DNA from: Deltaproteobacteria bacterium
GTDB lineage: Bacteria; Desulfobacterota; Desulfobaccia; Desulfobaccales; 0-14-0-80-60-11
NCBI GenBank assembly: GCA_016875015.1
Contig: VGSJ01000002.1
Span: 12,465-76,464, forward strand
Reading direction: 5' to 3'
Length of the DNA: 64,000 bases
Shown here: positions 1,116-48,384 of the stretch, piece by piece
How positions within the stretch are numbered: position 1 is the first letter of the stretch
Layout: each line of letters opens with the position of its first letter
The notes under the pieces: model-generated
The model's input: the letters and a program-made list of their open reading frames with translations, nothing else
Database searches by the model: none
Told to the model about the DNA's origin: nothing
Made by a program: the position numbers and the translations under genes

Positions 1116-1340
1116 ATGCCCATTTTTGAATTTCGCTGCCATAGCTGTAACCAGGAGTTCGAGAAGCTGGTCTTCTGGACCGACCCGGAGGTGGAGTGCC
1201 CCCACTGCGGCCAGGCCAAGGTGGAAAAGCTGATGAGCGCCTGCGCCGCCAAGGTGGGGCAGAAGTATACCGCCGCCTCCAGCGGCAGCAAGAGTTCCTG
1301 CACCGGCTGCGCCGCAACTTCCTGCAGCACCTGCGGGTAA
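1116..1340 (+). CDS. FmdB-family zinc-ribbon putative regulatory protein
   Basis: MPIFEFRCHSCNQEFE...ECPHCG: the typical N-terminal CxxC...CxxC zinc ribbon of the FmdB family. Cys-rich tail. Confidence 0.8.
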   Translation: MPIFEFRCHSCNQEFEKLVFWTDPEVECPHCGQAKVEKLMSACAAKVGQKYTAASSGSKSSCTGCAATSCSTCG

Positions 1341-1441
1341 TACCATTTTCCTGTAGGGGCGCACCCATGTGTGCGCCCTCGGGGTGGGCGGACACGCAGG
1401 TCCACCCCTACGATTTGACGTTTTTCAAAGGAAAAAGCTAT
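1340..1441. repeat. 102-nt inverted-repeat-bounded element, diverged copy
   Basis: Starts at the last A of the TAA stop (TAATACCATTTTCC) and ends GGAAAAAGCTAT just before the hemC GTG. Contains two GC hairpins (GTAGGGGCGCAC...GTGCGCCCT and GGGGTGGGCGGAC...GTCCACCCC). Same 102-nt length as the copies at 27813 and 30397. Confidence 0.6.
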
Positions 1442-1443
1442 AA

Positions 1444-4071: not shown

Positions 4072-5034
4072 ATGAATGCGGCGCTCAATAACAATATTCG
4101 TATTTTCACGGGCAATTCCGTCCCCGAACTGGCTCACAAAATCTGCGACCACCTCTCCCTGCCCCTGGGGCAGGCTATGGTCAGCACTTTCAGTGACGGG
4201 GAGATCCGGGTGGAAATCGCTGATAATGTTCGGGGCCGGGACGTTTTTCTGATCCAGTCCACCTGTCCTCCCACCAACCACAACCTGATGGAACTCCTGC
4301 TCATGATCGACGCAGTGAAACGGGCCTCGGCCCGGCGGATCACCGCGGTCATCCCCTATTTCGGCTATGCCCGCCAGGACCGCAAGGTGGCGCCCCGGGT
4401 GCCCATCACCGCCAAGCTGGTGGCCGACCTTTTGTCCACCGCCGGGGCCCAACGCATTCTCACCATGGACCTGCACGTGGGGCAGATTCAGGGCTTTTTC
4501 GATATTCCCGTGGACAATCTCTATGCTTCCCCCATCATGATTCCCTATATCCGGGAAAATTTTCAGAACGACCTGGCCATCGTGTCGCCGGATGCCGGGG
4601 GGGTTCCCCGGGCTCGGGCTTACGCCAAGCGCCTGGCAGCCACCCTGGGGTTGATCGACAAGCGCCGGGATGCCCCGGGTCAGGCCAAGGCCATGAATCT
4701 CATCGGCGAGGTCCTGGGCAAGGAAGTGGTCATTCTGGATGACATCATCGACACCGGCGGCACCTTGAGCGAAGCGGCCGGGGTCATCATCCAGCAGGGC
4801 GCCCGCAACGTCAACGCCTGCTGCACCCACGCCGTGCTCTCCGGGCCGGCGGTGGAGCGCGTCGCAAACTCCCCCCTGCACCGCCTGGTGGTCACCGACA
4901 CCATACCCTTGAGCGAGGCGGCCCAAAAGTGCCCCAAAATCGTGCAACTGCCGGTGGCCCCCCTCCTGGCCCAGGCCATTTTGCACATCCACCAGGAAGA
5001 CTCCATCAGTTCCCTGTTTGAGATTCAGTTTTAG
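4072..5034 (+). CDS. prs: Ribose-phosphate pyrophosphokinase
   Basis: Full-length PRPP synthetase: FSDGEI.V, YFGYARQDRK, and the DDIIDTGGT PRPP-binding loop. Confidence 0.95.
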   Translation: MNAALNNNIRIFTGNSVPELAHKICDHLSLPLGQAMVSTFSDGEIRVEIADNVRGRDVFLIQSTCPPTNHNLMELLLMIDAVKRASARRITAVIPYFGYARQDRKVAPRVPITAKLVADLLSTAGAQRILTMDLHVGQIQGFFDIPVDNLYASPIMIPYIRENFQNDLAIVSPDAGGVPRARAYAKRLAATLGLIDKRRDAPGQAKAMNLIGEVLGKEVVILDDIIDTGGTLSEAAGVIIQQGARNVNACCTHAVLSGPAVERVANSPLHRLVVTDTIPLSEAAQKCPKIVQLPVAPLLAQAILHIHQEDSISSLFEIQF

Positions 5035-5045
5035 GGGAGGATAGT

Positions 5046-5175
5046 GTGGTGGCACAGGCGTCTCGCCTGTGCCAAAGTAGCAGGTTAGCCTGGCACAGCC
5101 TGGAAAGGCTGTGCCACCGGCCAATATCACCTTTTCATGCTTTACGGCTGGACCTAAGGCCCATGAGGAACTGGC
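5046..5175. repeat. Composite GC-hairpin element (GTGGCACAGGC...GCCTGTGCC type), inverted copy
   Basis: The reverse complement aligns by eye with 8099-8226 (CAGT.C.TCAT.GGCCTT.GG.CCA.CCGTAAA.C.TGAAAAGGTG.TAT.GGC.GGTGGCACAGCCTTTCCAGGCTGTGCC.GGCTAACCTGCT...). Confidence 0.8.
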
Positions 5176-5332
5176 TTGAAAATTGTTTAATAATCAGTTG
5201 CCCCGCTCTTCCAAATCCGCCTGACTTATACCGCTTTCCGTTTCAAATGCAACAAACTTAATCTGTAACTTATTGACAATTCATATTGATTTTAACCGAA
5301 AACCGAAAACTGGATTAACCCTTGGGTGCAGC

Positions 5333-8098: not shown

Positions 8099-8318
8099 CA
8101 GTCACTCATAGGCCTTTGGCCCAACCGTAAAACCTGAAAAGGTGGTATAGGCTGGTGGCACAGCCTTTCCAGGCTGTGCCCGGCTAACCTGCTTCCTTGG
8201 CACAGGCTGGAAAGCCTGTGCTACCGATTTAAAGAACTTTTCAAGGCAGTCACTCATGAGCCTTTGGCTCACCAGTAAAGCATGAAAAGTTCAGTGGGGC
8301 GGGCCTCCGTGCCCGCCG
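8099..8318. repeat. Two tandem copies of the CAGTCACTCAT..GCCTTTGGC..GTAAA..TGAAAAG module, each followed by GC hairpins
   Basis: Copy 1 (8099-8226) uses GTGGCACAGCC/GGCTGTGCC hairpins. Copy 2 (8248-8318) uses GGGGCGGGCCTCCGTGCCCGCC, which is also found at 30433. Confidence 0.8.
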
Positions 8319-15307: not shown

Positions 15308-15456
15308 GGATATCTAGTGGTGGCACCGGCGTCTCGCCTGTGCAGGCGCCGGCTAAAGGTTCATGACCGATGTCGGTCACCCGCAGGGGATGAAAATCTC
15401 CCCTGCCCCCCTTTTTCAAAGGGGGGTTTTAAAGTCCCCCTTTAACAAAGGGGGAT

Positions 15457-15712
15457 TTAGGGGCAATGCTGTTCACTTAGCACCCGAGCTTTCAAAAAAT
15501 CCGGGAACGCATTTATCAACGACAGGGAGAAAGTGATTAATTCCCCCTCACCCTAAACCCTCTCCCCCATTGGGGGAGAGGGAATAAAGAAGGATATCCG
15601 GTAATTCTCCCTCTCCCCCCGGCGGGAGGAGAGGGCTGGGGTGAGGGGGGGCATCCTCGCCCCAGCAACCCATCGAAATAGCCAAACCTTAAGTGAACCG
15701 TATTGCCCCTAA
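15457..15712. mobile_element. MITE-like 256-nt element with about 24-nt terminal inverted repeats
   Basis: Left end TTAGGGGCAATGCTGTTCACTTAG. Reverse complement of the right end TTAGGGGCAATACGGTTCACTTAAG. The interior holds nested CCCTCTCCCCC/GGGGGAGAGGG and GGTGAGGGG palindromes and has no ORF. Confidence 0.5.
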
Positions 15713-15949: not shown

Positions 15950-16558
15950 CTATTCCTGCACCACGGTGGCCTTAATAATGGTTACCGGCTCCTGGGGCAC
16001 ATTCTCATAAGAGTCGCGCGTGGTGGTGGCCACCGCCTTGATTTTATCCACCACTTCCCGGCCTTGGCTCACCTTGCCGAACACCGCGTATCCCCAGCCC
16101 TGGGGCGTTTTGCTGGTGTGGTTGAGAAAGGTGTTGTTGCCCACGCTGATGAAGAACTGCGCCGTGGCCGAATGCGGGTCGCCGGTCCGGGCCATGGCGA
16201 CGGTGTAGGCATCATTGGTCAGGCCGTTGTCGGCTTCGTTCTTGATGGGCGCCCGGGTCGGCTTCTTGTTCATCTGGGCGTCCAGACCCCCGCCCTGGAT
16301 CATGAACCCGTTGATGACCCGGTGAAAAATGGTGCCGTTAAAAAATCCCGCTTTGACGTACTCCAGAAAATTGGCCACCGTGGCCGGGGCCTTGTCCGGA
16401 TTCAACTCTAAGGTGATCTCTCCCATGCTCGTTTCCAGCTTGACCAACGGATGACTCCTTTCTGCCCGGGCGCTCGACCCGGTTCCCAGGATTAAGCCTG
16501 CCATGAGGCCGACGGCCAGGAACAGCGCGCCGCGCCAGCCACCTCCACATATTTTCAT
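15950..16558 (-). CDS. Peptidyl-prolyl cis-trans isomerase, cyclophilin type (periplasmic)
   Basis: GEITLELNPDKAPATVANFLEY...FHRVI.GFMIQGGG. Start moved to MKICGGGW (GGAGG SD). Signal peptide present. Confidence 0.9.
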   Translation of the reverse strand: MKICGGGWRGALFLAVGLMAGLILGTGSSARAERSHPLVKLETSMGEITLELNPDKAPATVANFLEYVKAGFFNGTIFHRVINGFMIQGGGLDAQMNKKPTRAPIKNEADNGLTNDAYTVAMARTGDPHSATAQFFISVGNNTFLNHTSKTPQGWGYAVFGKVSQGREVVDKIKAVATTTRDSYENVPQEPVTIIKATVVQE

Positions 16559-16730
16559 GCCGATTCCTCCATGCTGATTGAGATTCATAACCATATCCGC
16601 CCGGGACTGAGGTTCAAAACAGGCGCGGTTCACTCAGCCGGCTGGTCGCCTTGACCTACTCGATGGGGGGACATGCACGTTGAGTAGGTTGAAGGGCGCG
16701 AGGGGTATCTCAATAGTTTTCAGTAGGTTG

Positions 16731-17585
16731 CTAAAAAATTTTAGCAAGATAGCCGAAACTATTAATTTTTGCCCCTTTAAAATAATGAGTCAGCCCTTCT
16801 TCAAAAATAATAAGTTCTTCATATCGTTCCCTGATTTTCGACTCTAATAAATCTTTCTCAAGGAGGGTTATTGGATATCTTACGATGCCATCTTTCATCC
16901 CATCCGGTAATTGACCCGGACCATTTCCACTATAGTTTGATGTCTGTATTGTAATAATTTGCCCAATATTATGCTCTAAAAGGGGCAATCTAGTGAGAAA
17001 GATATATTCCGCCGCACATTTCAAAATATCATCAATAGCTTGAAGAGGGTTCGGCACATATTGCAATGCAGATGATGAAAAACAAAGATCTACTCCGTTA
17101 TAAGCTGCAATAGCTTCATTGATATCTTCAAAAAATCTCAACTTACCATCTTCTAATAATTTTCCTTTCTGAACCATATTGTGGGTTTCTACGACATGCC
17201 ATTTCACTTCGATACTACCATTAAGGAAATGATTAGCTAAAAAGTAATGCGCCCCACAACCACCGCCAAAATCAACGACCCTCAATATTTTTTTCTTAGA
17301 TAAAACAGATATAATTAATAGTTGCCTGCTTATTGCATAATCAGCCATTAACGGTTTTTGACTATAGACCTTGTCACGCCAACATTTTGTCTTCTCATAT
17401 ACTACATCTGCTAGATAATCGTTTGAATATCCCGTATGACATTGTAATAATGCCTCATTGTATGAACTGAAATTAGTCGGCAAAAGCTCAGTATTTATAT
17501 ATCTCCTGACTGTCTGAGCCAGGGTTTTCGAGATGAAGCCCTTAAAATTAATGGTCATCTCCTGCCCCTTGGATTTTTTCGCCAT
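16731..17585 (-). CDS. Class I SAM-dependent methyltransferase, TIGR04325-like
   Basis: F.SYNEAL..C.GYSNDYLADVV.EKT N-terminal region, then VVDFGGGCG (SAM motif I). The gene is clearly AT-richer than its flanks. Confidence 0.7.
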   Translation of the reverse strand: MAKKSKGQEMTINFKGFISKTLAQTVRRYINTELLPTNFSSYNEALLQCHTGYSNDYLADVVYEKTKCWRDKVYSQKPLMADYAISRQLLIISVLSKKKILRVVDFGGGCGAHYFLANHFLNGSIEVKWHVVETHNMVQKGKLLEDGKLRFFEDINEAIAAYNGVDLCFSSSALQYVPNPLQAIDDILKCAAEYIFLTRLPLLEHNIGQIITIQTSNYSGNGPGQLPDGMKDGIVRYPITLLEKDLLESKIRERYEELIIFEEGLTHYFKGAKINSFGYLAKIF

Positions 17586-18179
17586 GGCGCCGCGTATCGG
17601 GTGGCTACCGATCGCCGCGATCTCTTCCCAGGAGATACCGCCATGATCTCAATGAGCCTCATCTCTATTCAAAAACTTAACCGGACCAGGCGGCATAATT
17701 TTGGAGCCAGGCGCCATGTAAGCGCTAGTTTAGCAAATCCTCGCCGGGAGAACAAAGGAAATCCCGGAGTAATCGCCGGGAGTTCCGGCCCGCGCCTGAT
17801 CGGCGCCGCGCCCTGGGCGCCTTAACCCGGCAACGCCAGGTCGCGGCGCCAGGCCCTCACATTTTTTTCGCGGCGACCGGTAAGCGGGGGGATTTTTCTA
17901 TGGTTACTGCCGCCCGCGCTTCCGAGACCATGGCGCTTCACCGGGGCACACCCTGGCCGCCGACCGCCCCCTCCGCCTGGCGATCTTGCCCCGCTTGATT
18001 TTTTCAGCTTCAAATCGACATGAACTTTTATAAAAAAATTCTCGTTTTATTAAAGATATTTCTTGACAGGATACTTTTTTAAATATATATGTTGGGTACG
18101 AGAAGCAAAGAATGCATAGCCAGGGAAGGGCTTACGTACTGTATCTTTTGGACTCTTAAAACTTAAAAGGAGAGAGATC

Positions 18180-18848
18180 ATGAAGGTTAAATTAGTCTTG
18201 GGTATCGTATGCTTAGCCCTGATGTGCGCAGTTCCCGGGGCTCAGGCCGCCACACTTCTCTGGAATAACGGGGCCCCCGACAGTGTTTGGGGAGCGGAGA
18301 TGGCTTCATATCTGCCCGCGAATGATTTTACCTTCGGTTCTTCCCAGACGGTGACCAACGTGCGTTTTTGGGCAGTCGCCGCGGATGGGTTTGGAACTCC
18401 GGATCCTGGCGTTTACAATAATAGCATCGTTTGGCAAATTTATGATGACGGCGGCGGCCAACCCGGCAGCCTCCTGAATTCCGGGACAGCCGCACCGACC
18501 CCGGTTTCAAGCCATGCTACCGGTTGGGGCCAATCGTACCGGTTTGATTTTTCTATCACCCCAACGACTCTGGGGCCAGGCGCCTATTGGCTCGCGCTTC
18601 ACAACGGCCCCATGACAACGCAAGGCGACTCTAACTACTATTGGGAATCAAGCGGCACAGGGGGTGTTCTGGCTTATGCTGCGGCCGCTGGAGGTGGTGC
18701 CTGGGGTCTTTGGGAGACTTATCCTTTAGGTGCTTCCTTCGCCTTTGAACTGTACAACGGTAATCCGGTTCCCCTTCCCGGGGCCGTCTGGCTCCTGGGT
18801 TCCGGTCTGCTGGGCTTGATCGGCTTGAGGAAGAAGTTGAGAAGCTAG
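18180..18848 (+). CDS. PEP-CTERM sorting-domain protein
   Basis: Signal peptide. C-terminus VPLPGAVWLLGSGLLGLIGLRKKLRS is the canonical PEP-CTERM motif plus TM helix plus basic tail. GGAGAG SD. Confidence 0.9.
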   Translation: MKVKLVLGIVCLALMCAVPGAQAATLLWNNGAPDSVWGAEMASYLPANDFTFGSSQTVTNVRFWAVAADGFGTPDPGVYNNSIVWQIYDDGGGQPGSLLNSGTAAPTPVSSHATGWGQSYRFDFSITPTTLGPGAYWLALHNGPMTTQGDSNYYWESSGTGGVLAYAAAAGGGAWGLWETYPLGASFAFELYNGNPVPLPGAVWLLGSGLLGLIGLRKKLRS

Positions 18849-18878
18849 CGCCTGCTTCCCCGTTATCCAGTCTCCCGA

Positions 18879-18908
18879 GGCAGGGTCAGTCATGGCCCTG
18901 CCTTTTTT
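18879..18908 (+). terminator. Rho-independent terminator of the PEP-CTERM gene
   Basis: GGCAGGG, 10-nt loop, CCCTGCC, followed by TTTTTT. Confidence 0.8.
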
Positions 18909-19069
18909 CCGGCCTGAATAAAGACCTGATGGCGAGTTGCGGTCAAAAATTTACAGGCGAAACGTAGGGGCGCATCTAGGTATGAGCCCTCAGGGGGGAC
19001 GCCTAGTGGTTTTTAAAATGAGCTGGCTCATATTTTTAGCAATCTTGTTGGGCCTGGGACCCCCATACA

Positions 19070-19101
19070 TAAAAAAATGGCCGCATGGACTCTGCGGCCA
19101 T
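19070..19101 (-). terminator. Rho-independent terminator of the TAC operon
   Basis: The minus strand reads ATGGCCGCA-gagtcca-TGCGGCCAT followed by T7. It lies 30 nt after the chaperone stop. Confidence 0.8.
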
Positions 19102-19130
19102 TATATCAATTTGTCAGGTGAAACGAAGGA

Positions 19131-19688
19131 TTAGGTATTAACCTTCTTGCGCCGGGGGGATTCCTTTTTGACAGGCTGATTTTCGACTTTTTTCGCCGGG
19201 GTTTTTTTCAGCACAATTTCCAACAGGGGCACCGTCAGCGCCGGAAAACCCATGCGGGAGCTCATGCTCTGCACAAACTCCCGCCAATAAGGCCAGGCAT
19301 GGGAGATGGGATTGATCCGAAAAAAATACTCTAAATCGTCAGGACCAACTTCAAAATCATCCGGGACAGCAGGAGCCTGATAAACATAAGATGTGCAAAA
19401 GGAGGCCTCAATTTTCATAACGAGTTTATCCGGCGATTCAGCGCTAAATGCAGCAACCTGAAAATTGCAGTGGATTTTATCGATGAGAGGCTTATCTTTT
19501 TCATACCAAAGAGACGTGTCGCATTTATGCTCCAAGGAAAGAGTGTCGGGAAACGCAATCAATGGGTCGCGGGTGATTTTCGCGTCAACCAGATAAATTT
19601 CTTTAAGGACATACCGTTGAGCTACGCCGACAGCCCTTTCCATATCAAGATTTTCAATAGCTACTTCCAACATAGCATTCTTATTCAT
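19131..19688 (-). CDS. SecB-like chaperone (TAC system chaperone)
   Basis: HAWPYWREFVQSMSSRMGFPALTVPLLEI aligns with E. coli SecB [29 protein letters not shown]. 185 aa with a Lys-rich tail. It is the third gene of the toxin-antitoxin operon. AAGGGGTG SD. Confidence 0.75.
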   Translation of the reverse strand: MNKNAMLEVAIENLDMERAVGVAQRYVLKEIYLVDAKITRDPLIAFPDTLSLEHKCDTSLWYEKDKPLIDKIHCNFQVAAFSAESPDKLVMKIEASFCTSYVYQAPAVPDDFEVGPDDLEYFFRINPISHAWPYWREFVQSMSSRMGFPALTVPLLEIVLKKTPAKKVENQPVKKESPRRKKVNT

Positions 19689-19699
19689 TTAAGCACCCC

Positions 19700-20107
19700 T
19701 TAATTAACAATGGCGGCTTGTGCAGAATAGCCATCAGCGAAGGTAAATTCAAATGACTCCCGAGTAACCACAGGAATCTTGGGAGGTGTATAGGTATTCT
19801 TTAATGCTATGATATTGCTTTCTTGTCTTGGCTTACCTTCTTTAAAAGGTTTGAGGGAAGCTCTATACCCTAAGACGTGGAGAATATCAGCCACAGTTCG
19901 CAGAGTAAGATTCCGGCCGCCATTCAATAATTGAGAGATAAACCCCTTTGATTTCCCTAAACGGTCGGCCAGTTCTTTCCTGGAAATCTTCTCATTATCC
20001 AAAAGCTCACAAATGGTTTCAGTAACTTCTAGAATCAAATCTTCTTGAGCAAAAAGCCTCCGGAATTCTTCATCCTTTAGGTACTCATCCAGGATTGTAG
20101 TTTTCAT
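19700..20107 (-). CDS. XRE-family HTH antitoxin (HigA-like) with C-terminal extension
   Basis: ISRKELADRLGKSKGFISQLLNGGRNLTLRTVADIL is the HTH_3 core, followed by about 55 aa beyond the HTH. Start moved to MKTTILDEY, 4 nt after the toxin stop. Confidence 0.8.
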   Translation of the reverse strand: MKTTILDEYLKDEEFRRLFAQEDLILEVTETICELLDNEKISRKELADRLGKSKGFISQLLNGGRNLTLRTVADILHVLGYRASLKPFKEGKPRQESNIIALKNTYTPPKIPVVTRESFEFTFADGYSAQAAIVN

Positions 20108-25446: not shown

Positions 25447-25518
25447 TGTCATCCTGAGCGTAGCGAAGGATCTCATCTATCTGAAAATGCGAGATTCTTC
25501 GCTCCGCTCAGAATGACA
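25447..25518. repeat. Second copy of the TGTCAT(T/C)CTGAGCG...GAGATTCTTCGC palindromic element
   Basis: TGTCATCCTGAGCGTAGCGAAGGATCTC ... GAGATTCTTCGCTCCGCTCAGAATGACA. Confidence 0.85.
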
Positions 25519-25589
25519 AGAAAAATGTAGGGCGGCATTGCCCGCCATCCTCATTATCCGTGCTTTTCTAATAATTGAGGCAATAATTG

Positions 25590-26146
25590 ATGGAAATTGA
25601 CTACCTAAAGCTATATGACGATGAAAATTACTTGCTTGAGGAAGTTTCAAGGCGTTTTTCTGAGCATGGGTACCTTGAGGCTTTTGACTTTTTTGCATTG
25701 TAATTTGGAAGGCAAATCGTTCTAAATCCAAGATCGCAAAACGCCTCTTATCTAAGGGGCACCCAGACCTGGACTCGGCGGTGGTTGCTTTGACAAAATC
25801 CTTAGCAAAGGCCGCAAATGATAAGACGCTGATGAAAATATTGTTCGAGGATTGGGGCTTTCTGCTACCCATGGCGTCCGCCATTTTGACGGTTCTTTAT
25901 CCCATGTCGTTTACTATTTATGACTTTCGGATTTGTGAAGTGCTTGATGACTTCTATAATTTACAGAACAAAACGAATTTTGATTCTCTCTGGAACGGAT
26001 ATGAATTATTCGTAGCCGCGGTAAAGAAGATTGGACCCTCGGAATATAGTTTGAGAAATAAAGACCGATGGTCATGGGGTAAATCATTCTCCCGGCAACT
26101 CGAAAAAGATATAGCCGAGAATTTCCGAAAGAAAGTTGACGAATAA
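25590..26146 (+). pseudogene. Low-GC hypothetical gene split by a frameshift in a T6 tract
   Basis: ATG 25590 gives MEIDYLKLYDDENYLLEEVSRRFSEHGYLEAFDFF, then TAA at 25701. The -1 frame is open from 25688 and continues CIVIWKANRSKSKIAKRL...MVALTKS... (track ORF 25781..26146). The junction is TTTTTT at 25689-25694. Confidence 0.6.
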
Positions 26147-27813
26147 TGCACCTCAAAAAAACCATCCATGACCTGATCACCGCCAGCGCCAATCGATCCA
26201 AAGAAGCGGGCGAGCTCACCTTTGAGACTATCCCCGCCTTCGAAGTAGAGGCCACCAAACACCCGGAGCACGGCGACCTGGCCGCCAACCTGGCCCTGGT
26301 CCTGGCCAAGCAGGCCAAGATGCCGCCCCGGAAGGTGGCCGAAGTCATCATCAACCACCTCGCGGCCCCGGAGGGCATGCTCCTGAAAATGGAGATCGCC
26401 GGACCCGGCTTCATCAACTTTTTTATCGCCGACAGCTATTGGCGCCGGGTGATATCGGAAATTCACCGGCTGGGTCCGGCTTACGGCAACAGTGAGATGG
26501 GCGCAGGCGTCAAAGTCCAGGTGGAGTTCGTCAGCGCCAACCCCACCGGGCCGCTGCACATCGGCCACGGCCGGGGCGCGGCTTTAGGGGATGCCCTGGC
26601 CAATCTGCTGGCCGCCGCAGGTCATACGGTGGAGCGGGAATACTACATCAACGACGTGGGCAACCAGATCCTCACCCTGGGAAAATCCCTTTATTTCCGT
26701 CTGCGGGAGCTTTCTGGCGAAGCGGTGGAGTTCCCGGCGGACGGCTACCAGGGCGGCTACATGAAAGACCTGGCCCGGGACTATCTGGCCCAGGGCCAGG
26801 CCGCGCCTGGGCCGGAACCCCATGCCGACGACCTTTTGCGCCTGGGCCGTTACGCCGGCGACGTAATCCTGGATGAAATTAAGCAGGACCTGAACGACTT
26901 CGGGGTACGCTTCGACCACTGGTTCAGCGAAACCGAACTCTACCGCCAGCATCTGGTGGACCAGAGCTTTACCCTGCTTCAAGAGCAAGGGTATCTCTAT
27001 GAGCAAGACGGCGCCCTGTGGTTTAGGGCGACAGAGTTCGGGGACGAAAAAGACCGGGTGGTGCGGCGCAGCAACGGGGCCTTCACCTACTTCGCCTCGG
27101 ATGTGGCCTATCACCTGCACAAATTCCGGCGGGGCTTTGACCGGGTGGTGGATATCTGGGGGGCCGATCACCACGGCTATGCGCCCCGGCTCCAGGCCGC
27201 GGCCCAGGCCCTGGGGTTCACCGGCCGCCTGCAGGTGATCCTGGTGCAGCTGGTGTCGCTGTTGCGTCAGGGTGAGCCCGTGGCCATGACCACCCGGGGG
27301 GGCACCTTTGTCACCTTGCGGGAGGTCATGGACGAAGTGGGCAAAGATGCGGCGCGTTTCATTTTTCTCACCCGGCGGCCCGACGCCCAACTGGAGTTCG
27401 ACCTGGAAGTGGCCAAACAGCAGAGCAGCGACAACCCGGTCTATTATGTCCAGTATGCCCACGCCCGGCTGGCCTCGGTGTTCCGCCAGGCCGCGGCCCA
27501 GGGGATCGAGATCGAAGAGCTTGACCCGGCCCGATTCTCCCGGCTCATCCTGCCGGAGGAGTTGGCCATCCTCAAGATGCTGGCTAATTATCCGGAACTG
27601 GTGGAGGGGGCGGCCCGCAATCGGGAGCCGCATCGGATCACTTATTTCTTGACTGAACTGGCCGCCCAATTGCATAGTTATTATTACAAACATCGCTTTA
27701 TCTCTGACGATGTTGAGCTGACCCAGGCTCGCTTCTGGCTGGTGAGCAGCGTGAAAACCGTTTTGGCTCATGGTTTGGCAATCTTAGGGGTGGAGGCCCC
27801 GGAAACCATGTAA
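26146..27813 (+). CDS. argS: Arginyl-tRNA synthetase
   Basis: SANPTGPLHIGHGR (HIGH motif). Full-length class I ArgRS with a C-terminal DALR domain. The ATG overlaps the upstream TAA (TAATG). Confidence 0.95.
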   Translation: MHLKKTIHDLITASANRSKEAGELTFETIPAFEVEATKHPEHGDLAANLALVLAKQAKMPPRKVAEVIINHLAAPEGMLLKMEIAGPGFINFFIADSYWRRVISEIHRLGPAYGNSEMGAGVKVQVEFVSANPTGPLHIGHGRGAALGDALANLLAAAGHTVEREYYINDVGNQILTLGKSLYFRLRELSGEAVEFPADGYQGGYMKDLARDYLAQGQAAPGPEPHADDLLRLGRYAGDVILDEIKQDLNDFGVRFDHWFSETELYRQHLVDQSFTLLQEQGYLYEQDGALWFRATEFGDEKDRVVRRSNGAFTYFASDVAYHLHKFRRGFDRVVDIWGADHHGYAPRLQAAAQALGFTGRLQVILVQLVSLLRQGEPVAMTTRGGTFVTLREVMDEVGKDAARFIFLTRRPDAQLEFDLEVAKQQSSDNPVYYVQYAHARLASVFRQAAAQGIEIEELDPARFSRLILPEELAILKMLANYPELVEGAARNREPHRITYFLTELAAQLHSYYYKHRFISDDVELTQARFWLVSSVKTVLAHGLAILGVEAPETM

Positions 27814-27914
27814 TACCGTGTTCCCTTTGAAATGAAACAAACCATCCAGATAACCTATTGATATCTCTCGTAGGGGCGGGTTTCAAACCCGCCCCTACAA
27901 AACGAACACGGTAT
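27813..27914. repeat. 102-nt inverted-repeat-bounded element (reference copy)
   Basis: ATACCGTGTTC ... TGAAACAAAC ... GTAGGGGCGGGTTTCAAACCCGCCCCTAC ... GAACACGGTAT. The 11-bp ends are perfect. It starts at the last A of the argS TAA. Confidence 0.8.
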
Positions 27915-27933
27915 AAATCGGTGGGAGAATCGT

Positions 27934-28767
27934 TTGCGGCGACAATTGCGATTACCAGGTTTCCAGAAGAGACAACCCGATGGAGGTGAAGTGGAGACAG
28001 GTCGGGGGAAAAAGGGCAAAAAGGCCGGCTGGCATTTGACCCTGGGGGTCAGGGACGCCATCTTCGCCGGGATCGGCTTGGTGGGTTTGCTGCTGATAAG
28101 TTTCGCCCTTGGAGCCCTGGCCGGACGTGGAGATATCTACCGGGCGGCTTACTCCTGGGGGTTGTTGACCCCTGATGGGGCCAAGGTGGCCCAGTGGATG
28201 CCGGCGCCCGGCCCCCCGGCGGCGGCCTCCGCCGGGACGCCGGGAACCGCGACCTCGACTACGGTGGCAGCCGCCGTGGCGCCACCTCCGGCGCCGGGGG
28301 CCGCGGCGCCGGCGCGGCCGAGTCCGGTAACCGGGTCCATCGCGCCCCTGCCCCCTCCTGCCGCGGCTAAGAAAAAGGGCAAAACCGGGACCGGGACCGC
28401 GCAACGCGACCGCAAGTCCCAGGAAGAAGAACTGCGACAGGTGCGTCAGGAAGTAGTCCCGAAGCTCAAGTTTCAGAATAGTTTCGACACGGGCATAAAG
28501 CCCCGGCCGCCCAAAGCCAAAGACCATGATAAGGCCCAGGCCGCCCAGGTGCGGGTAGCCGACTATCGGACCGACAAGGAGGCTCAGGCTAAGGTGGCCG
28601 AATTGCAGAAAAAAGGCGTCAAGGCGACCCTTAAAAAAACCAAAGACTCCAAAGGGACCTTGTATATCGTCTATAAACCGACGAGCCCCGCTCCGCCAGG
28701 CGCCGAGAAGCTGGTCCAAAAGCCGGAAAAAAGCCGCGGCGCCACCCCCAAACCCAAAGTCGAATAG
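27934..28767 (+). CDS. SPOR-domain membrane protein
   Basis: One TM helix (AIFAGIGLVGLLLISFALGALAG), an Ala/Pro-rich linker, and a C-terminal SPOR-like VRVADYRTDKEAQAKVAELQKKGVKATL..TLYIVY. TTG start with GGGAGA SD. Confidence 0.75.
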   Translation: MRRQLRLPGFQKRQPDGGEVETGRGKKGKKAGWHLTLGVRDAIFAGIGLVGLLLISFALGALAGRGDIYRAAYSWGLLTPDGAKVAQWMPAPGPPAAASAGTPGTATSTTVAAAVAPPPAPGAAAPARPSPVTGSIAPLPPPAAAKKKGKTGTGTAQRDRKSQEEELRQVRQEVVPKLKFQNSFDTGIKPRPPKAKDHDKAQAAQVRVADYRTDKEAQAKVAELQKKGVKATLKKTKDSKGTLYIVYKPTSPAPPGAEKLVQKPEKSRGATPKPKVE

Positions 28768-29270
28768 CCTTGCCGCGGCAGTTCCGAGGGCAGGGGAGTG
28801 CCGCCGCCAAACCCAATGGACGGCCGCTCATATCCAGGGCCTGAGGATATGCGGGGCGCCGGCCCGGCCCGTCAGCCTCCCTCGTCTGGATTCCACCCTT
28901 CCCCTCGGTGAACACCTTTCTTTTTCATCCCCATGCTTGAGCCACACCCTGAGCCGGATGACCCGGAAAAAGTGGCTGGGGTCAGGAACCAAGAGCCGGG
29001 ACCCTCACCTGCTCTTGCCATTGCCTAAACTTTCAGAAAAATAGCTCCTCAGCCCCTATACTTCTCCCTTTTAACCCCAAGCTTTCGCCGATTAAGCGCC
29101 TGAATTCCTGGCATGGATCGTGCTCTTTACCCAGAGCACAAGCCCAGGGAACCGGACCAGATGCTCCACACCCCCAAGAGTAACAAGCATGACCTTCGGT
29201 TTCCGGCTCAGCGGTTACAGGTGGAGAAAAAGAGTTCACCGGTATAGCCGCCAGTAAGGGAACGCCGGCC

Positions 29271-29945
29271 ATGAAAAAAATCCTCATCGTCATTATCAGT
29301 GTCTTGTTGGCGCCAGGTTTGAGTTTCGGGGCGCCGGCCCGGATCTATGTGCCCAATCAAGGCGACACCGGCTGGCAGACCTATACCTATACTGCCGGGC
29401 CTGAGGGGTTTACCGGCACGGCCGGGTTTGTAGTGAGCAATGCCAAGGATAATTTCGCCTACTCCGAGTTGCTCCTGGATAACCTGGGCCAGGGGGGCGG
29501 GGGCACAAACCAAGGATTCGAACTGGGCGACCTTACAGGATACTTTTTGGCAAGCGATAGCTCCGGCACGAGCTTTGCCACGGTCAGCACCTCGGCAACG
29601 GCAATCAGTGGCAATACCTATACCCCCACCCAGGGTGATTTTTTATGTGTTATCCAAGGGTTATGTAGTGGGGTTCCTACCTCCGGGTTTCGCAATGCCA
29701 CCGGCCAGATCGGCACCGTTGGCTCGATTCTGGAAACGGCCATAACTTTGGCCCCCGGCGAGAAATTTTCCTTTGACTGGGTCTTTCTGGGGAATGACTT
29801 GATTCCTTACAATGACTTCGCCCTGTTTTACCTGAAAGACCCCCAAAGCGGCGCCATCGTGTTTATCGAGCTTCTTGCCCAGATAGGTTCGCCCAGGTTC
29901 CCCATCGCGGCAATTCTCCTGTTGCTGGATGGGGGATCATTCTGA
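29271..29945 (+). CDS. Secreted protein with degenerate PEP-CTERM tail
   Basis: Signal peptide MKKILIVIISVLLAPGLSFG. The C-terminus ...AQIGSPRFPIAAILLLLDGGSF* is a decayed version of the intact tail found 282 nt downstream. Confidence 0.7.
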   Translation: MKKILIVIISVLLAPGLSFGAPARIYVPNQGDTGWQTYTYTAGPEGFTGTAGFVVSNAKDNFAYSELLLDNLGQGGGGTNQGFELGDLTGYFLASDSSGTSFATVSTSATAISGNTYTPTQGDFLCVIQGLCSGVPTSGFRNATGQIGTVGSILETAITLAPGEKFSFDWVFLGNDLIPYNDFALFYLKDPQSGAIVFIELLAQIGSPRFPIAAILLLLDGGSF

Positions 29946-29972
29946 GGGCCTGGCACGGATCAGGCTTTATAA

Positions 29973-30257
29973 AAAAATGCCACCGGGCAGGCCGGCACCG
30001 TCGGCTCGATTCTGGAGACGGGGATAACCCTGGGGGCCGGAGCGCCATTTTCCTTTAACTGGGCCTTCCTGGGGAATGACTTCAGTCCCTGGAATGATTT
30101 TGCCCTGTTTTACCTGAAGGACCCAAACGGCATCGTGTTTTACGAGGGCCTCGCCCAGATAGGTTCCCCGGTCCCCATCCCGGGATCTCTCCTGCTGCTG
30201 GGCAGCGGCCTCCTCAGTCTGCTGGGTTTGGCTCGGAAGGGCAAAAGGCAGGATTGA
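29973..30257 (+). pseudogene. Orphan 3' gene fragment carrying an intact PEP-CTERM signal
   Basis: Hand translation gives KNATGQAGTVGSILETGITLGAGAPFSFNWAFLGNDFSPWNDFALFYLKDPNGIVFYEGLAQIGSPVPIPGSLLLLGSGLLSLLGLARKGKRQD*. There is no start codon and a TAA lies immediately upstream. It duplicates 29694-29945. Confidence 0.7.
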
Positions 30258-30396
30258 TAGGTGGTTATGACCTGAGCCGCGGTAGGGGGCTTATCCGGAT
30301 CATGCCGGCAGAGGCATGACCGGCGATGCTGACCCGGCGCCCGGCGATGGGTTGACAGAAAGAGAAACGTATCCGAAACCGCGGGGAGGGCTGGTT

Positions 30397-30498
30397 ATAC
30401 CATGTTCGTTTTCACATGAAACAAACCCATTGGTGGGGCGGGCCTCCGTGCCCGCCAACGTTCAGAGAGTTTGTTGCGACTGAATATGAACATGGTAT
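30397..30498. repeat. 102-nt inverted-repeat-bounded element, second copy
   Basis: ATACCATGTTC ... TGAAACAAAC ... GGTGGGGCGGGCCTCCGTGCCCGCC ... GAACATGGTAT. The right end abuts the TAA of the minus-strand FmdB gene, giving TAATACCATGTTC on that strand. Confidence 0.8.
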
Positions 30499-30845
30499 TA
30501 CAGGTCCGTCTCGCCCGCGGCGTCACTCCCCTGGCTGTCCATGGCTTCCTCCACCATTTCATCCGCCTCCCCGGGAAAGTCCTCCCCCATCTCCTGGCCC
30601 ATCCTTTTGAGAACTTTGGCGACGCTCTTGGGATCATTCTCATCCATCCCGGACCAGGCCGAGGGGTCGGCCAGGCGTTCCAGGCGGGTTTCTTCGGAGA
30701 GTCGCACATGCACCCGGGAGAGGACCCGTTCCAGGGAATGGCCGCCGCACTGCTTGCACACCGGGACAAATGGGTCTCTCAGATTTAATAGTAAGAAACT
30801 GGAAACTCGTTGACATTCCTGGCAGCGATATTCATAAATCGGCAT
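30498..30845 (-). CDS. FmdB-family zinc-ribbon protein, second paralog
   Basis: MPIYEYRCQECQ...CKQCGG zinc ribbon with an acidic C-terminal tail. Confidence 0.8.
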   Translation of the reverse strand: MPIYEYRCQECQRVSSFLLLNLRDPFVPVCKQCGGHSLERVLSRVHVRLSEETRLERLADPSAWSGMDENDPKSVAKVLKRMGQEMGEDFPGEADEMVEEAMDSQGSDAAGETDL

Positions 30846-30909
30846 GATGTTTCTCCTGGCGCAGTATGCAGCCGCCAGTAAACCTTTCTGACATCCGCCT
30901 CACTGGAGT

Positions 30910-32337
30910 CTAATGCCGCACCCGGACTTTCATTTTTTCCAGACGAGTCAGTTGGGTTTGGACCTCGCGGTAATGGGAGTCATTGGGGGATAAGTTCTTT
31001 AAAGCTTTTTGAAAATGAAACATGGCGGTGGGCAGGGCCTTTACCTTAAGACTATGAAACCCCAGATAATAGTGAGCCAGGCCCATCTGCCCCTTCTCGC
31101 CGTAAAGCGTCCCCAGGTTATAGTAGACTTCGCTGAAAGCAGGATTGAGCTTGTGCACCTTTTCAAACAGGGGTAAGGCCTGATCGCGTTTTTTGCTCTC
31201 CTGATAAATCCGCCCCAGATAGTACAAGACCACGTCGTCCTGGGGATAACGCTGGGAAAGTTCACTCAATTTTTGTAGGGCCTCGGGATACTGATTACGG
31301 TTAAAATAAAAAATGGCCAAATCCCGTTTAATCAGCCGGTTATCCGGGGCAAGCCGCAGGGCCTGCTGAAACGCGGCCAGCGCGGCATCGTGCTGCTCTA
31401 ATTTGGCCAGAGCCAGGGCTCGACCGTATTGAAAGGTGGGATTATTCGTCTCCCGCAGCCCCTCCTGGGTCATTCGCCGCAGGAGTTGATTCGGGTTGCC
31501 GCAGAGCGATGCCAGCTTGATGGTGAAGTATTGGAAATCAGGGTTGTCTCTTTCCGGCGGCAACTCCTTCTGATGTATCGTCAATTGGTGCGAGAGTTCC
31601 ACGATCCGGTTATCCACCCCCGGGTGGGTGCTGAGGTAGACGGGAATCTTGCCTCCTTCCATCCACCGCTGTTTATTCATTTTGCTGAATATGGTCACCA
31701 TGTCCCGGGGATTATAGCCGGCTTTGACCATCCATTTAAACCCCAGGGAGTCGGCTTCCTCTTCATTGTCCCGGCTGTATTTCAGCATGGCGCTTTCCCC
31801 GGCGGCCATGGAACCCACCAGCAGAGGCTGCGCCAGGGCCCCGCCCAGAAAAACCGCCGCCAGCGCCCCAATTAAACTGGCGGCGCTGACCAGCCGGGAT
31901 TTTTTCATCATCTTGGCCATATGCCGGGCATAGACGTGGGAAATTTCGTGGGCCAAGACCGCGGCCACTTCTCCTTCCCGCTCGGCCATGCGAATCATGC
32001 CGGTATGAAGGAAGACATAACCCCCCGGCACCGCGAACGCATTCATCGTGGGGTCAACCACGATGAAAAACTTATAGTGGAAGGGCTGAGGGCCCATTTG
32101 CGCCACCAGTTTCTGGCCCAGTTGATTAAAATATGAGGTAATAAAAGGGTCTTCCACCAGGGGGTAATATTGCTGCAGTTGCAGGAGAAACTCCTCCCCG
32201 ATCTGCCTTTCCTTTTCGAGACTCAATTCCCCGGCCAACGTGTCGAAAAAAGCCCAACCGGACCGGACGGGTCCCACGAGCAGACTCGTAGCCAGGATGA
32301 CAATGGCCACCAGCCTCCATGGAGAACCTTGGTTCAT
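30910..32337 (-). CDS. M48 metalloprotease with TPR domain (BepA/YfgC-like)
   Basis: HEISHVYARH (HExxH), N-terminal signal/TM segment, C-terminal TPR repeats. Confidence 0.85.
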   Translation of the reverse strand: MNQGSPWRLVAIVILATSLLVGPVRSGWAFFDTLAGELSLEKERQIGEEFLLQLQQYYPLVEDPFITSYFNQLGQKLVAQMGPQPFHYKFFIVVDPTMNAFAVPGGYVFLHTGMIRMAEREGEVAAVLAHEISHVYARHMAKMMKKSRLVSAASLIGALAAVFLGGALAQPLLVGSMAAGESAMLKYSRDNEEEADSLGFKWMVKAGYNPRDMVTIFSKMNKQRWMEGGKIPVYLSTHPGVDNRIVELSHQLTIHQKELPPERDNPDFQYFTIKLASLCGNPNQLLRRMTQEGLRETNNPTFQYGRALALAKLEQHDAALAAFQQALRLAPDNRLIKRDLAIFYFNRNQYPEALQKLSELSQRYPQDDVVLYYLGRIYQESKKRDQALPLFEKVHKLNPAFSEVYYNLGTLYGEKGQMGLAHYYLGFHSLKVKALPTAMFHFQKALKNLSPNDSHYREVQTQLTRLEKMKVRVRH

Positions 32338-41729: not shown

Positions 41730-42191
41730 ATTTATCACGCCGGCCTGTGGGGGCTGCGGGAGGGCAAGTATCAAGCCTTGGCTGAAATGGAGATGGGGGG
41801 CGCCTCCTGGAGGCCCTCGCCCTGGAAAAGCTCATCACCTCCTTCGCTGTGCCCGGTTCTAACCTGGTGGAGAAGGTGCGTTATGTAATCCCCCCGGCCC
41901 CCCTTTAGAAAAGGGGGGAGAAAGAGGGCGGGTTTATATCAATGACCTACAGTATTTTGAAGGCGTGCCCCGGAAGTCCGGGCCTTTCAGGTGGGGGGCT
42001 ATCAGGTGCTCCACAAATGGCTGAAAGACCGCAAAGGCCGCACCCTCGCCTTTGCCGACCTGCACCATTAACAGAAGGTGGTGGGGGCCCTGGCCGACAC
42101 CATCCGCCTCATGGCCGAGATCGACGCCGCCATTGACGCCCACGGCGGCTGGCCGGATGCGTTTGCTGACGGCGCTCCAGGCCACAACTGA
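41730..42191 (+). pseudogene. Decayed C-terminal remnant of a type ISP / type IIG-like restriction-modification enzyme
   Basis: Three frames must be joined: ..GGRLLEALALEKLITSFAVPGSNLVEKVRY / (about 40-nt repeat insertion) / VYINDLQYFEGVP / (1-nt loss in a C run) / EVRAFQVGGYQVLHKWLKDRKGRTLAFADLHH*QKVVGALADTIRLMAEIDAAIDAHGGWP. In-frame TAA at 42069. Confidence 0.6.
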
Positions 42192-47820: not shown

Positions 47821-47911
47821 AAATCCCCCTAAATCCCCCTTTGCCAAAGGGGGACTTTCAAAGGAATTCCGTTAAGTTCCCCCCTTTGGAAAAGGGGGGT
47901 CAGGGGGATTT
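47821..47911. repeat. AAATCCCCC / CCCCCTTTGSCAAAGGGGG hairpin repeats
   Basis: The reverse complement GAAAGTCCCCCTTTGGCAAAGGGGGATTTAGGGGGA matches 15431-15466 (TAAAGTCCCCCTTTAACAAAGGGGGATTTAGGGGCA). Overlaps the last codons of ybeY. Confidence 0.8.
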
Positions 47912-48384
47912 TCCGGCTCGGGGGGAGCCGGTTCCAAATCCCACGACCGCCCGGGGTAGAGCACCCCCATCAGCTCCCAGGTTCTGGCGGTCATGCGGGC
48001 TTCGGCCGCCGGCGCTCCGTGGTCGTAGCCCAACAGGTGTAATATACCGTGAATCAGAAAAAAGGCGAGGAGTTCCTGCCAGGGCCAGCCAAATTCCTGG
48101 GCCTGGCGGCGGGTAGTCTGAAGCGAAATCACCACCTCGCCCAGAAGCGCCGGGGGGCCGCCGGGGGTAGGCGGGTCGTCCAGGGGAAAGGCGATGACGT
48201 TGGTGGGGCCGCGCCGCCCGAAGGTTTCCCGGTTCAGGCGCGCCATGGCCCGGTCGCCCACCAGGGTAAGGCTCAGTTCCCGGTCAGACAATCCCAAGGC
48301 GTTTAAGATCTTCGCGGCTTTTTCCCTGAGCTTCTGCTGACTTAAGACCGTTGTCCTTTGGCGGTTGTTTATCCAGATCGTCAT
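47872..48384 (-). CDS. ybeY: rRNA maturation endoribonuclease YbeY
   Basis: HGILHLLGYDH zinc motif and PTNVIAFPL. About 25-aa Pro-rich C-terminal extension. Confidence 0.9.
   Translation of the reverse strand: MTIWINNRQRTTVLSQQKLREKAAKILNALGLSDRELSLTLVGDRAMARLNRETFGRRGPTNVIAFPLDDPPTPGGPPALLGEVVISLQTTRRQAQEFGWPWQELLAFFLIHGILHLLGYDHGAPAAEARMTARTWELMGVLYPGRSWDLEPAPPEPENPPDPPFPKGGT

Follow-up and report, generated by a model that had tools for sequence, protein, structure and literature searches.

Results

The window, by which we mean the whole 64-kb stretch of DNA that was analyzed, contains three genes whose TAA stop codons directly adjoin a repeat of about 100 nt: argS (open reading frame 26146-27813), a minus-strand Zn_ribbon_8 (FmdB-like) gene (30498-30845) and a gene for a 74-aa Zn_ribbon_8 protein (1116-1340) next to hemC. 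A sequence-only reading of the window had described the repeats as three copies of 102 nt, at 27813-27914, 30397-30498 and, in diverged form, 1340-1441, and all three were recovered at these positions with the sequences that it quoted. The inverted ends of the first two copies match perfectly over 11 nt (ATACCGTGTTC/GAACACGGTAT and ATACCATGTTC/GAACATGGTAT, respectively), and both copies carry TGAAACAAAC at positions 21-30 on the plus strand, as had likewise been reported; in copy 2 this shared motif is located at the gene-distal end, relative to the adjacent genes. The only exact matches to ATACCRTGTTC in the 64 kb are the two perfect inverted-repeat pairs of copies 1 and 2, and a scan that allowed up to two mismatches gave 27 matches, compared to 13.8 expected.

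The boundaries proposed in that reading are correct in sequence, but we find that the ends are better read as TAA/TACC...GGTA/TAA, that is, as a 100-nt core between two directly repeated copies of the triplet TAA or TTA (3 bp). In copy 1, which belongs to subfamily A, the left TAA (27811-27813, plus strand) is the argS stop codon, present as a single TAA in relatives, and the right TAA (27914-27916, plus strand) was assigned by comparison with the relatives. The core between them (27814-27913, plus strand) has the ends TACCGTGTTC...GAACACGGTA, with TTTGAAATGAAACAAAC as left-arm motif and a GC hairpin in the center. This hairpin corresponds to the GTAG-headed, REP-like palindrome GTAGGGGCGGGTTTCAAACCCGCCCCTAC (27870-27898, not stranded), which folds into a 13-bp stem and is nearly invariant across 14 distinct subfamily-A sequences. 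Copy 2, of subtype C, is flanked on the left by TTA (30395-30397, plus strand; assigned from the sequence and the relatives) and on the right by a TTA (30498-30500) that is the minus-strand TAA stop of the FmdB-like gene; its core (30398-30497, plus strand) has imperfect inverted arms of about 29 nt and a central GTGGGGCGGGCCTCCGTGCCCGCC hairpin. In copy 3, the left TAA (1338-1340, plus strand) is the stop of the 74-aa gene, the old and diverged core (1341-1440, not stranded) has the ends TACCATTTTCC...GGAAAAAGCTA with GC hairpins filling the interior, and the right TAA (1441-1443, plus strand) is located directly before the hemC start (GTG at 1444 or TTG at 1450).

A fourth copy had been overlooked. 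In this decayed member of subfamily B (5226-5317, plus strand), the left arm is TACCGCTTTCCGTTTCAAATGCAACAAAC, the right end has decayed to CTGGA and CCGAAAA 7-mers are present; it is flanked by TTA/TTA away from any stop codon, and its closest relative is at locus L079. Furthermore, the central hairpin of copy 2, GTGGGGCGGGCCTCCGTGCCCGCC, occurs once more in the window, 100% identical and outside any element (8294-8317, not stranded). No match was obtained when the window was scanned for Rfam families and tRNAs, and the open reading frames that cross the elements are short and spurious only.

Empty sites were identified for all three stop-codon copies in relatives in which the gene order is kept and ArgS or HemC is 85-90% identical. 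The argS site reads ...CCATGTAAATCG... in four relatives (L073, L075, L076 and L074), with a single TAA and without the element, and the stop of the Zn-ribbon gene at the copy 2 site reads ...GGCTGGTTACAGGTCC..., also without the element, in three of them (L073, L075 and L074). The Zn-ribbon/hemC junction that corresponds to copy 3 reads ...GCGGTTAAGCGATC... and is empty in L173; the orthologous site in L174 is filled by a diverged copy. At each of the three sites, the window has the same sequence as the empty site plus 103 nt. The stop codons pre-existed, and one TAA of each duplication still serves as the stop. The suggestion that the element supplies stop codons had to be abandoned, since the empty sites already have them. 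As a separate observation, a DDE_Tnp_1_4 gene pair is located about 2 kb from the element in L174.

The repeats in the window belong to a much larger set. Members of the family consist of about 100 nt of non-coding core sequence, with terminal inverted repeats of the form TACCnTnTTC...GAAnAnGGTA, which are perfect over 10-11 nt in copies 1 and 2, and a conserved subterminal arm, TTTnAnATGnAACAAAC. A left-arm search pattern with 20 specified bases, for which about one chance match is expected in 596 Gb, identified 67 loci in genomes, all of them Desulfobaccia/Desulfobaccales-type MAGs, and at least 87 loci in metagenomes, so that the three copies first described are not the only ones. The flanks differ among the genome and metagenome loci, and a scan of viral contigs with the arm pattern gave 0 matches. 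The cores are 82-101 nt long across copies, thus under about 300 bp and without coding capacity. By their interior, they fall into two or three subfamilies, with either a GC hairpin or CCGAAAA 7-mers, the latter in variable number, and matched end variants, for example G...C as opposed to A...T, would mark the different subfamilies. The strict length of 102 nt previously claimed for the family is a property of the hairpin-bearing subfamily A, in which 38 of 40 sites are exactly 100 nt and 35 of 40 have identical flanks, but not of subfamily B, in which the lengths step by 7 nt (85/86, 92 and 99 nt).

Near-identical copies, which point to recent activity of the family, were found at many different sites. 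One MAG (JBFLXM01) contains about 20 such copies, 13 of which are identical, the sequence of copy 1 recurs at 98% identity or more at 11 other sites on contigs sharing the lake sample identifiers of the window, and near-identical relatives of copy 2 are present at other sites in L009, L107 and L141. Two candidate arrangements were rejected upon inspection: the 557-codon open reading frame upstream of the element in L012, thought to represent a second argS insertion, encodes an unrelated protein, and the outer element in L037, thought to contain a clean nested insertion, is truncated, leaving an abutting arrangement only.

The duplicated bases are strongly biased. TAA/TAA or TTA/TTA flanks are present in 57 of 70 copies, and the 82 non-redundant copies with identical flanks include 40 with TAA, 39 with TTA, 2 with TGA and 1 with TCA. 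Integration thus takes place at T-N-A trinucleotides, which are TAA or TTA in nearly all cases, and in the conventional reading all three bases are duplicated. The classical hallmark of the IS630/Tc1-mariner elements is a 2-bp duplication of TA (PMC2170065), and we considered this alternative as well, but it does not fit the empty sites and would need an asymmetric element of 101 nt. By sequence alone, T-N-A/TACC...GGTA/T-N-A is indistinguishable from T-N/ATACC...GGTAT/N-A with a 1-bp duplication. Either the clade is atypical for the IS630/Tc1-mariner group or the true cleavage positions differ. In the literature searched, we found no directly relevant report of a bacterial IS630 member that duplicates 3 bp.

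An association with stop codons was evident, although it concerns a minority of the copies. An open frame of at least 80 codons is ended by 18 of about 60 copies, or by 19 of 82 non-redundant copies (about 23-30%), whereas the background for abutting a long open reading frame is about 6%, as estimated from a crude map of open reading frames rather than gene calling (enrichment p = 3e-7). In the same map, TAA is the commonest stop codon (207 TAA, 163 TGA and 92 TAG), in genomes with about 60% G+C. Because about 70-77% of the copies are located away from the ends of long open reading frames, the target is the trinucleotide T-W-A anywhere and not stop codons as such; the earlier idea of stop-codon targeting holds in so far as TAA is indeed targeted. 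Insertion exactly on a TAA stop recreates the stop upstream of the element and leaves the protein unchanged, and is hence tolerated. This tolerance plausibly explains the accumulation of copies at the 3' ends of genes.

We also considered the possibility that the repeat is a functional RNA or DNA cassette, such as a modular terminator or a 3'-UTR stabilizer, which is recruited to stop codons or supplies them, and in which the stem and the hairpin are under structural selection. Copies 1-3 form much more stable folds than shuffled sequence does (z = -3.7 to -7.8), and the terminal stem contains a double change from G-C to A-U, which the sequence-only reading took as a sign of selection. The enrichment of copies at the 3' ends of open reading frames, and the precedent of terminator-like small repeats such as SPRITE (PMC3049150), would also agree with such a role. 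However, strong folding follows trivially from the presence of inverted repeats, and a stable fold is absent from subfamily B, including copy 4 (z = +1.4), despite the same ends and flanks. The double change represents a single event among the 14 distinct subfamily sequences and is not significant, a level that was reached in 86 of 500 shuffles, and in 7 of these sequences the bases of the adjoining pair, 6/96, do not pair. Selection on the terminal stem is therefore not supported. Nor do the elements look like terminators: on both strands, the hairpin lacks a following T/U tract, with AAAAC next to it on the plus strand and GAGAGA on the minus strand, and a terminator scan of positions 27000-31500 did not call the elements. 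Given also that the stops pre-exist in the empty sites and that most copies are situated elsewhere than at the ends of open reading frames, we regard a cassette of this kind as very unlikely. The inverted ends would rather be the ends to which a transposase binds than an RNA stem under selection.

The central GC hairpins, which differ between the subfamilies, could represent cargo modules that resemble the GTAG-type REP palindromes. They consist of GC-rich GTAGGGGCGGG palindromes of 24-29 nt that begin with GTAG or GTGG, like the GTAG REPs (PMC3733652). In another reading, the whole repeat would belong to the REP- or PATE-type elements, and its GTAG-headed hairpin would be recognized by a mobilizing tyrosine (HUH) transposase of either the IS200/IS605 or the RAYT type; the solitary copy-2 hairpin at 8294-8317 could also be cited in its favor. 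HUH-type elements have neither a target duplication nor terminal inverted repeats, whereas both are consistent features of the family studied here, and subfamily B shares the ends and the duplication despite being hairpin-free. Furthermore, the GTAG of the central palindrome is base-paired with CTAC, whereas it is an unpaired tag in the GTAG REPs (PMC3733652), and GTRGGGGCG is not enriched in the window (6 matches versus 3.2 expected). We consider mobilization by an HUH transposase extremely improbable for the repeat; at best, it could explain where the central module came from.

A full-length element with matching ends was identified in L096. This 1,121-bp element, TAA/TACCAAGTTCG...GAACTTGGTA/TAA, contains two genes, orfA (HTH) and orfB (DDE_3), whose overlap is located at an A8 slippery run. 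The open reading frames match DDE_3 (PF13358, 4.9e-25) as well as HTH_33/HTH_32, and the NF033545 model for the IS630 family transposase (2.5e-40, 138.8 bits, compared to a cutoff of 100). Homologs retrieved purely by protein search share these ends and come from the same lake samples, including the sample of the window itself, 3300020074 (L171), and the arms of the short repeats are identical to the ends of the full-length element at 22-25 of the first 29 positions. On a long contig (L177), a 56%-identical relative has TACC...GGTA ends and TAA/TAA flanks. In several full-length copies the two flanks differ (TTA versus TAA), but these are located on contigs of 1-2.5 kb, or one of their flanks is only a few to about 135 nt long, and the difference may be an assembly artifact; a 3-bp duplication of the full-length element itself is not proven by them. 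The copy in L164 was discarded as evidence for the duplication, being without a right end.

No full-length copy was found beside the short repeats in about 500 kb of MAG loci that contain them, and an all-against-all BLAST of the 67 MAG loci revealed no common repeat of such a size. Pairs of ends located 787, 948 and 1,657 nt apart in these loci were candidates for an autonomous element, but each corresponds to two separate short repeats, with ordinary genes or a series of other small repeats between them. Nevertheless, the matching ends suggest that the short repeat was mobilized in trans, with the transposase supplied by the 1,121-bp element, and an IS630-family insertion sequence is likely to be its driver.

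A TWA duplication is a hallmark of PIF/Harbinger, and our first guess, based on this duplication, was that the repeats are Tourist-like MITEs moved by an IS5-family or PIF/Harbinger-type transposase. Such an origin would account directly for the predominance of 3-bp TAA and TTA duplications, and the IS1031 group of the IS5 family has been reported to recognize three nucleotides as insertion site (PMC2516522). It was dropped once the IS630-type elements with matching ends had been found. Every full-length element found with these ends encodes an IS630-family protein (DDE_3, NF033545), and an IS5-type element with TACC...GGTA ends was not seen among them, which makes an IS5 or Harbinger origin highly unlikely.

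Discussion

We conclude that the 102-nt repeats represent a new MITE family, an ordinary kind of mobile DNA rather than a device dedicated to stop codons or termination; only the duplication of 3 instead of 2 bp, for a partner of the IS630 type, is unusual. The proposal, made from the sequence of the window, that they are small non-autonomous elements is well supported by the terminal inverted repeats, the target-site duplication, the empty sites, the many copies and the insertion sequence with matching ends. It is in our view highly probable that the full explanation is a non-coding transposon of about 100 nt, moved in trans by an IS630-family transposase, with T-W-A as its target and with stop-codon sites retained by tolerance. 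A bare trinucleotide preference in combination with purifying selection could thus give the appearance of “docking” on stop codons, making a mechanism specific for stop codons unnecessary.

One hypothesis, to which we would assign roughly even chances, is that integration of this clade of bacterial IS630-family elements, and of their MITEs, may involve a stagger of 3 nt at T-W-A rather than the canonical 2-nt stagger at TA, and that they thereby have a built-in, harmless landing on TAA stops in GC-rich genomes. As a weaker addition to this hypothesis, some copies could have been co-opted as 3'-end RNA structures. A 3-nt stagger would, if true, provide a natural variant for studying how Tc1/mariner-type transposases set the target stagger, and biochemical confirmation of an IS630-family partner with a 3-bp duplication would extend the known bacterial target rules of the family.

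Our findings also explain a 100-nt repeat that recurs in Desulfobaccales genomes and metagenome bins. For annotators, they provide exact boundaries, TACC...GGTA plus the duplicated TAA or TTA, and a caution against spurious open reading frames through the elements. Since copies differ between close relatives, they could be used as strain markers in lake populations.

Several known systems share some of these features. The SPRITE repeats (PMC3049150) are also small, interspersed and enriched near the 3' ends of genes, but in these a U-rich tract comes after a long stem, whereas the elements described here are without a U tract and have transposon ends and duplications. The GTAG REP palindromes (PMC3733652) are similar to the central modules in being GC-rich, 24-29 nt long and headed by GTAG or GTGG, and one such module stands alone in the window; however, the GTAG pairs here with a terminal CTAC, and the palindrome is located inside an element with terminal inverted repeats and a duplication. 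The Tourist-like MITEs, PIF-Harbinger and IS5 (IS1031 group) have in common with our family the 3-bp T-N-A/T-W-A duplication and the small non-autonomous derivatives, but the full-length elements with matching ends are here of the IS630 family.

Within the IS630-Tc1-mariner group, the Fot/pogo elements share the broad transposase superfamily and have been reported to duplicate TAA instead of TA (PMC7386202), although they are eukaryotic (fungal) and 1.2-5.2 kb in size, and were compared by description. The classical members, such as ISY100 and IS630, resemble the putative partner, which has an HTH N-terminus and DDE_3, passes the NCBIfam IS630 model, is about 1.1 kb long with inverted ends of about 30 nt, and has a target that contains T and A. 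They differ in that their target is TA with a duplication of 2 bp (PMC2170065), as compared to the net gain of the element plus 3 bp observed here (TAA or TTA, rarely TGA or TCA). The RUP elements, MITEs with the ends of IS630-Spn1, reside in Streptococcus rather than Desulfobaccales, have no sequence similarity to our family, and use the classical TA instead of a 3-bp T-W-A; the two or three subfamilies with different interiors are a further difference. Nevertheless, the two systems are alike in being non-coding and about 100 nt long, and in having terminal inverted repeats that resemble those of an IS630-family insertion sequence in the same population, and both are present as many intergenic copies that are presumed to have been moved in trans (PMC3049150).

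Results

The 102-nt stretches singled out by the sequence-only reading were confirmed at 27813-27914 (copy 1) and 30397-30498 (copy 2), each with perfect 11-nt inverted ends, and 1340-1441 (copy 3) was recognized as their diverged relative. The arms of copies 1 and 2 differ at one position each, G...C in copy 1 and A...T in copy 2, and exact matches to ATACCRTGTTC across the window are confined to these four arms. Read three bases outward, all three resolve into a 100-nt core, TACC...GGTA, between 3-base direct repeats: TAA at 27811-27813 and 27914-27916 around core 27814-27913, TTA at 30395-30397 and 30498-30500 around core 30398-30497, and TAA at 1338-1340 and 1441-1443 around core 1341-1440. 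A repeat search (repeat pair D6) revealed a previously unnoticed fourth copy at 5226-5317, flanked by TTA on both sides, with the left arm common to the family, a different interior, a decayed right end and no adjoining gene end.

The ArgS protein of the window is encoded on the JGI metagenome contig Ga0194113_10000278 (64,293 bp), which comes from sample 3300020074, and sister samples have it on shorter contigs; judging by the identifiers, we take the Ga01941xx samples to be a Lake Tanganyika series. Close relatives of ArgS and HemC were found in MAGs named Desulfobaccales or Thermodesulfobacteriota, and gene order is kept in relatives with ArgS or HemC 85-90% identical. At argS these relatives read ...GGAAACCATGTAAATCGATGGGAGAATCG..., and the window differs from them by TACC...GGTA and a second TAA placed after the stop. 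At the stop of the Zn-ribbon (FmdB-like) gene the empty site is GGGCTGGTTACAGGTCCGTCTC, and the window reads GGGCTGGTTA[TACC...GGTATTA]CAGGTCCGTCTC. The junction between the second Zn-ribbon gene and hemC is empty in a 2.19-Mb Desulfobaccales contig, L173 (...GCGGTTAAGCGATCTTG...), and holds a 103-nt insert both in the window and in L174, a closer relative, the two inserts being mutually diverged. The comparison of empty and filled sites thus identifies copies 1-3 as insertions that are precise, each adding 100 nt plus 3 nt. At all three loci the stop codons predate the insertions, contrary to the earlier suggestion that the element may supply them. Copy 3 was inserted earlier, and two lineages have inherited it.

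In the empty Zn-ribbon/hemC site the gene stop lies 0-6 nt from the hemC start; the old insertion set the two 103 nt apart, and the region upstream of the hemC start (GTG 1444 or TTG 1450; window 1430-1450) is now the right end of copy 3, AAAGGAAAAAGCTATAA. About 1.2 kb downstream of hemC, L174 carries a split DDE_Tnp_1_4 transposase gene pair (4120-4747) of a different IS family.

Scanning the left-arm pattern TACCNNNTTCNNTTTNANATGNAACAAAC against one genome per species (596 Gb; about one chance match expected) returned 67 loci, all 67 in Desulfobaccia/Desulfobaccales-type MAGs, and a metagenome collection yielded at least 87 loci. Subfamily A, to which copy 1 belongs, has the central palindrome GTAGGGGCGGGTTTnAAACCCGCCCCTAC and is exactly 100 nt long at 38 of 40 non-redundant sites. 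Subfamily B, which includes copy 4, is without the hairpin and carries a variable number of terminal CCGAAAA/CAGAAAA 7-mers, hence its lengths of 85/86, 92 and 99 nt. The copy-2 type is present at other sites in three of the compared loci (L009, L107 and L141), and its central module also stands alone at 8294-8317. Recent bursts are indicated by a single MAG (JBFLXM01) that holds about 20 near-identical copies of subfamily A, of which 13 are identical, and by 11 other sites in sister samples with the copy-1 variant at 98% identity or more.

Identical TAA or TTA flanks were present in 57 of 70 copies. In a set from which duplicate sites were removed and in which the right end was located independently of the flanks, 82 copies had identical flanks (40 TAA, 39 TTA, 2 TGA and 1 TCA); the copies outside this set are mostly of subfamily B, in which automatic end-finding is misled by the repeated 7-mers. 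Apart from T-W-A itself, the flanks show just a weak, symmetric bias, with T favoured at the second base before the triplet and A at the second base after. The duplicated TAA closes an open frame of at least 80 codons in 18 of about 60 clean-flank copies of a first set and in 19 of the 82. In a crude ORF map built for these loci, stop codons make up about 6% of the TAA/TTA sites outside coding sequence (207 vs 3,226 intergenic), and TAA is used more often than any other stop; against this crude background, copies are enriched about four- to five-fold at stop codons (p = 3e-7).

A candidate partner was found beside a family arm in the metagenome locus L096, as a full-length 1,121-bp element, TAA|TACCAAGTTCGCTTTTTAGTGCAACAAAT...GTCATTACGAACTTGGTA|TAA, with two overlapping ORFs that match HTH_33/HTH_32, DDE_3 (4.9e-25) and an NCBIfam IS630-family model (2.5e-40). 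A protein search with the fused ORF sequence retrieved many relatives, mostly 194-aa orfB products whose contigs measure about 1.1 kb, the pattern expected where a multi-copy IS breaks assemblies. One cluster (P0124, 81% identical) is encoded on five contigs, all of them from these lake samples and L171 from the sample of the window itself; these contigs, found through the protein alone, begin TACCAAGTTCGTATTGACATGCAACAAAC... and finish ...TTGTTGCATTAGAAAGCGAACTTGGTA. The MITE arms share 22-25 of the first 29 bases with the IS ends. Distant relatives (56% identity) on long contigs also have TACC...GGTA ends, with flanks TAA/TAA in L177 and TAA/TTA in L175. The orfA/orfB overlap lies at TTTTAAAAAAAACC in L096 and in a second locus, L168, alike, which would fit a conserved frameshift or slippage site.

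In a recurring composite, a 25-40-nt family-arm fragment is followed by TAA and a complete MITE or IS (L037, about 4510-4660, reverse strand; L175, about 960-2100; L096, 482-1645). Matching TAA or TTA flank the whole composite in L037 and L175, which suggests that a fragment of an outer arm, together with the inner element's far end, can function as one transposon. If so, this is a possible route to new chimeric subfamilies.

The window and its relatives contain several other small repeats. A second family of GGTGGCACAGGC...GCCTGTGCC hairpins with CATGAGCCTTTGGCTCAC...GTAAAGCATGAAAAG has two inverted copies at 5040-5182 and 8099-8290 (109 nt at 87%); its modules recur in the genome locus L014 (6650-6830) and interrupt subfamily-B elements in L007 and L125. 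At 25448-25550 an inverted repeat TGTCATCCTGAGCGTAGCGAAGGATC...GATTCTTCGCTCCGCTCAGAATGACA, presumably the small repeat of many phyla that gives spurious 'HSERSEES' peptides, is directly followed by a GTAG-headed hairpin, and the same repeat occurs in L014. Clusters of CCCCCCTTTnnAAAGGGGGG hairpins lie at 15392-15463, 41887-41919 and 47821-47913, with distant copies up to 92% complementary (repeat pairs D8, D12, I5, I7 and I13). A pair of subfamily-A elements in L014 (6079-7032), separated by 850 nt, surrounds an intergenic stretch consisting nearly entirely of small hairpin repeats of at least five different kinds; these genomes gather small repeats in particular gaps. The tandem repeat at 317-696 (ORF 28-822; 3.7 copies, 91% identity) encodes 34-residue TPR-like repeats; its 102-nt unit matches the element in size by coincidence and is unrelated. 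The stretch at 16000-20000 is possibly a foreign island, as its G+C content drops to 0.48-0.50 from the value of about 0.60 found elsewhere.

Discussion

The repeats constitute a new family of MITEs in the Desulfobaccales, and their partner is of the IS630 family. The IS630-family insertion sequence is the likely driver. The earlier interpretation was half right, in that the element is non-autonomous and targets TAA, but it is not specific for stop codons, since three quarters of the copies lie elsewhere. The simplest account of the association is a T-W-A target combined with selection: a copy that lands on a TAA stop restores that stop, and the protein stays unchanged, whereas insertions into coding sequence or promoters would presumably be removed.

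We also considered the proposals that the terminal stem is under structural selection and that the element serves as a terminator. Copies 1-3 fold much better than shuffled sequence, as does any sequence that combines inverted ends with a palindrome, and copy 4 has no stable fold (z = +1.4). Among 14 distinct aligned subfamily-A sequences, the terminal stem shows one double change at one pair, the window variant, which was equalled by 86 of 500 shuffles. At the neighbouring pair, 7 of these 14 sequences have lost the pairing (TACCAAGTTC vs GAACATGGTA), and one copy carries the G without the matching C. The central hairpin is near-invariant and therefore provides no evidence for or against structural selection. 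The matched G...C/A...T change is more plausibly a mark of separate subfamilies, in each of which both ends must fit the same transposase. Selection on the structure is not supported. The element is not a terminator device either; the hairpin is not followed by a T-tract on either strand, and a terminator scan did not pick the elements.

The central modules resemble the described GTAG-tagged REP palindromes (PMC3733652), but the likeness is one of resemblance only; the GTAG is paired in the modules here, and the window shows no enrichment of the motif.

Classical IS630/Tc1-mariner elements use TA as their target and generate a 2-bp duplication (PMC2170065). Such a duplication was rejected here, as it needs an asymmetric 101-nt element with an extra base at either end. 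The conventional reading is a 3-bp T-N-A duplication, which by sequence alone is indistinguishable from the insertion of a 102-nt element, ATACC...GGTAT, that duplicates just the middle base (1 bp). In the searchable literature we found no report of TAA duplication in bacterial IS630 members, and such reports may exist elsewhere. A 3-bp duplication with an IS630-type partner is the one feature of the family that merits experiment. For the fungal Fot elements, which belong to the wider IS630-Tc1-mariner group, duplications of TAA have been reported (PMC7386202).
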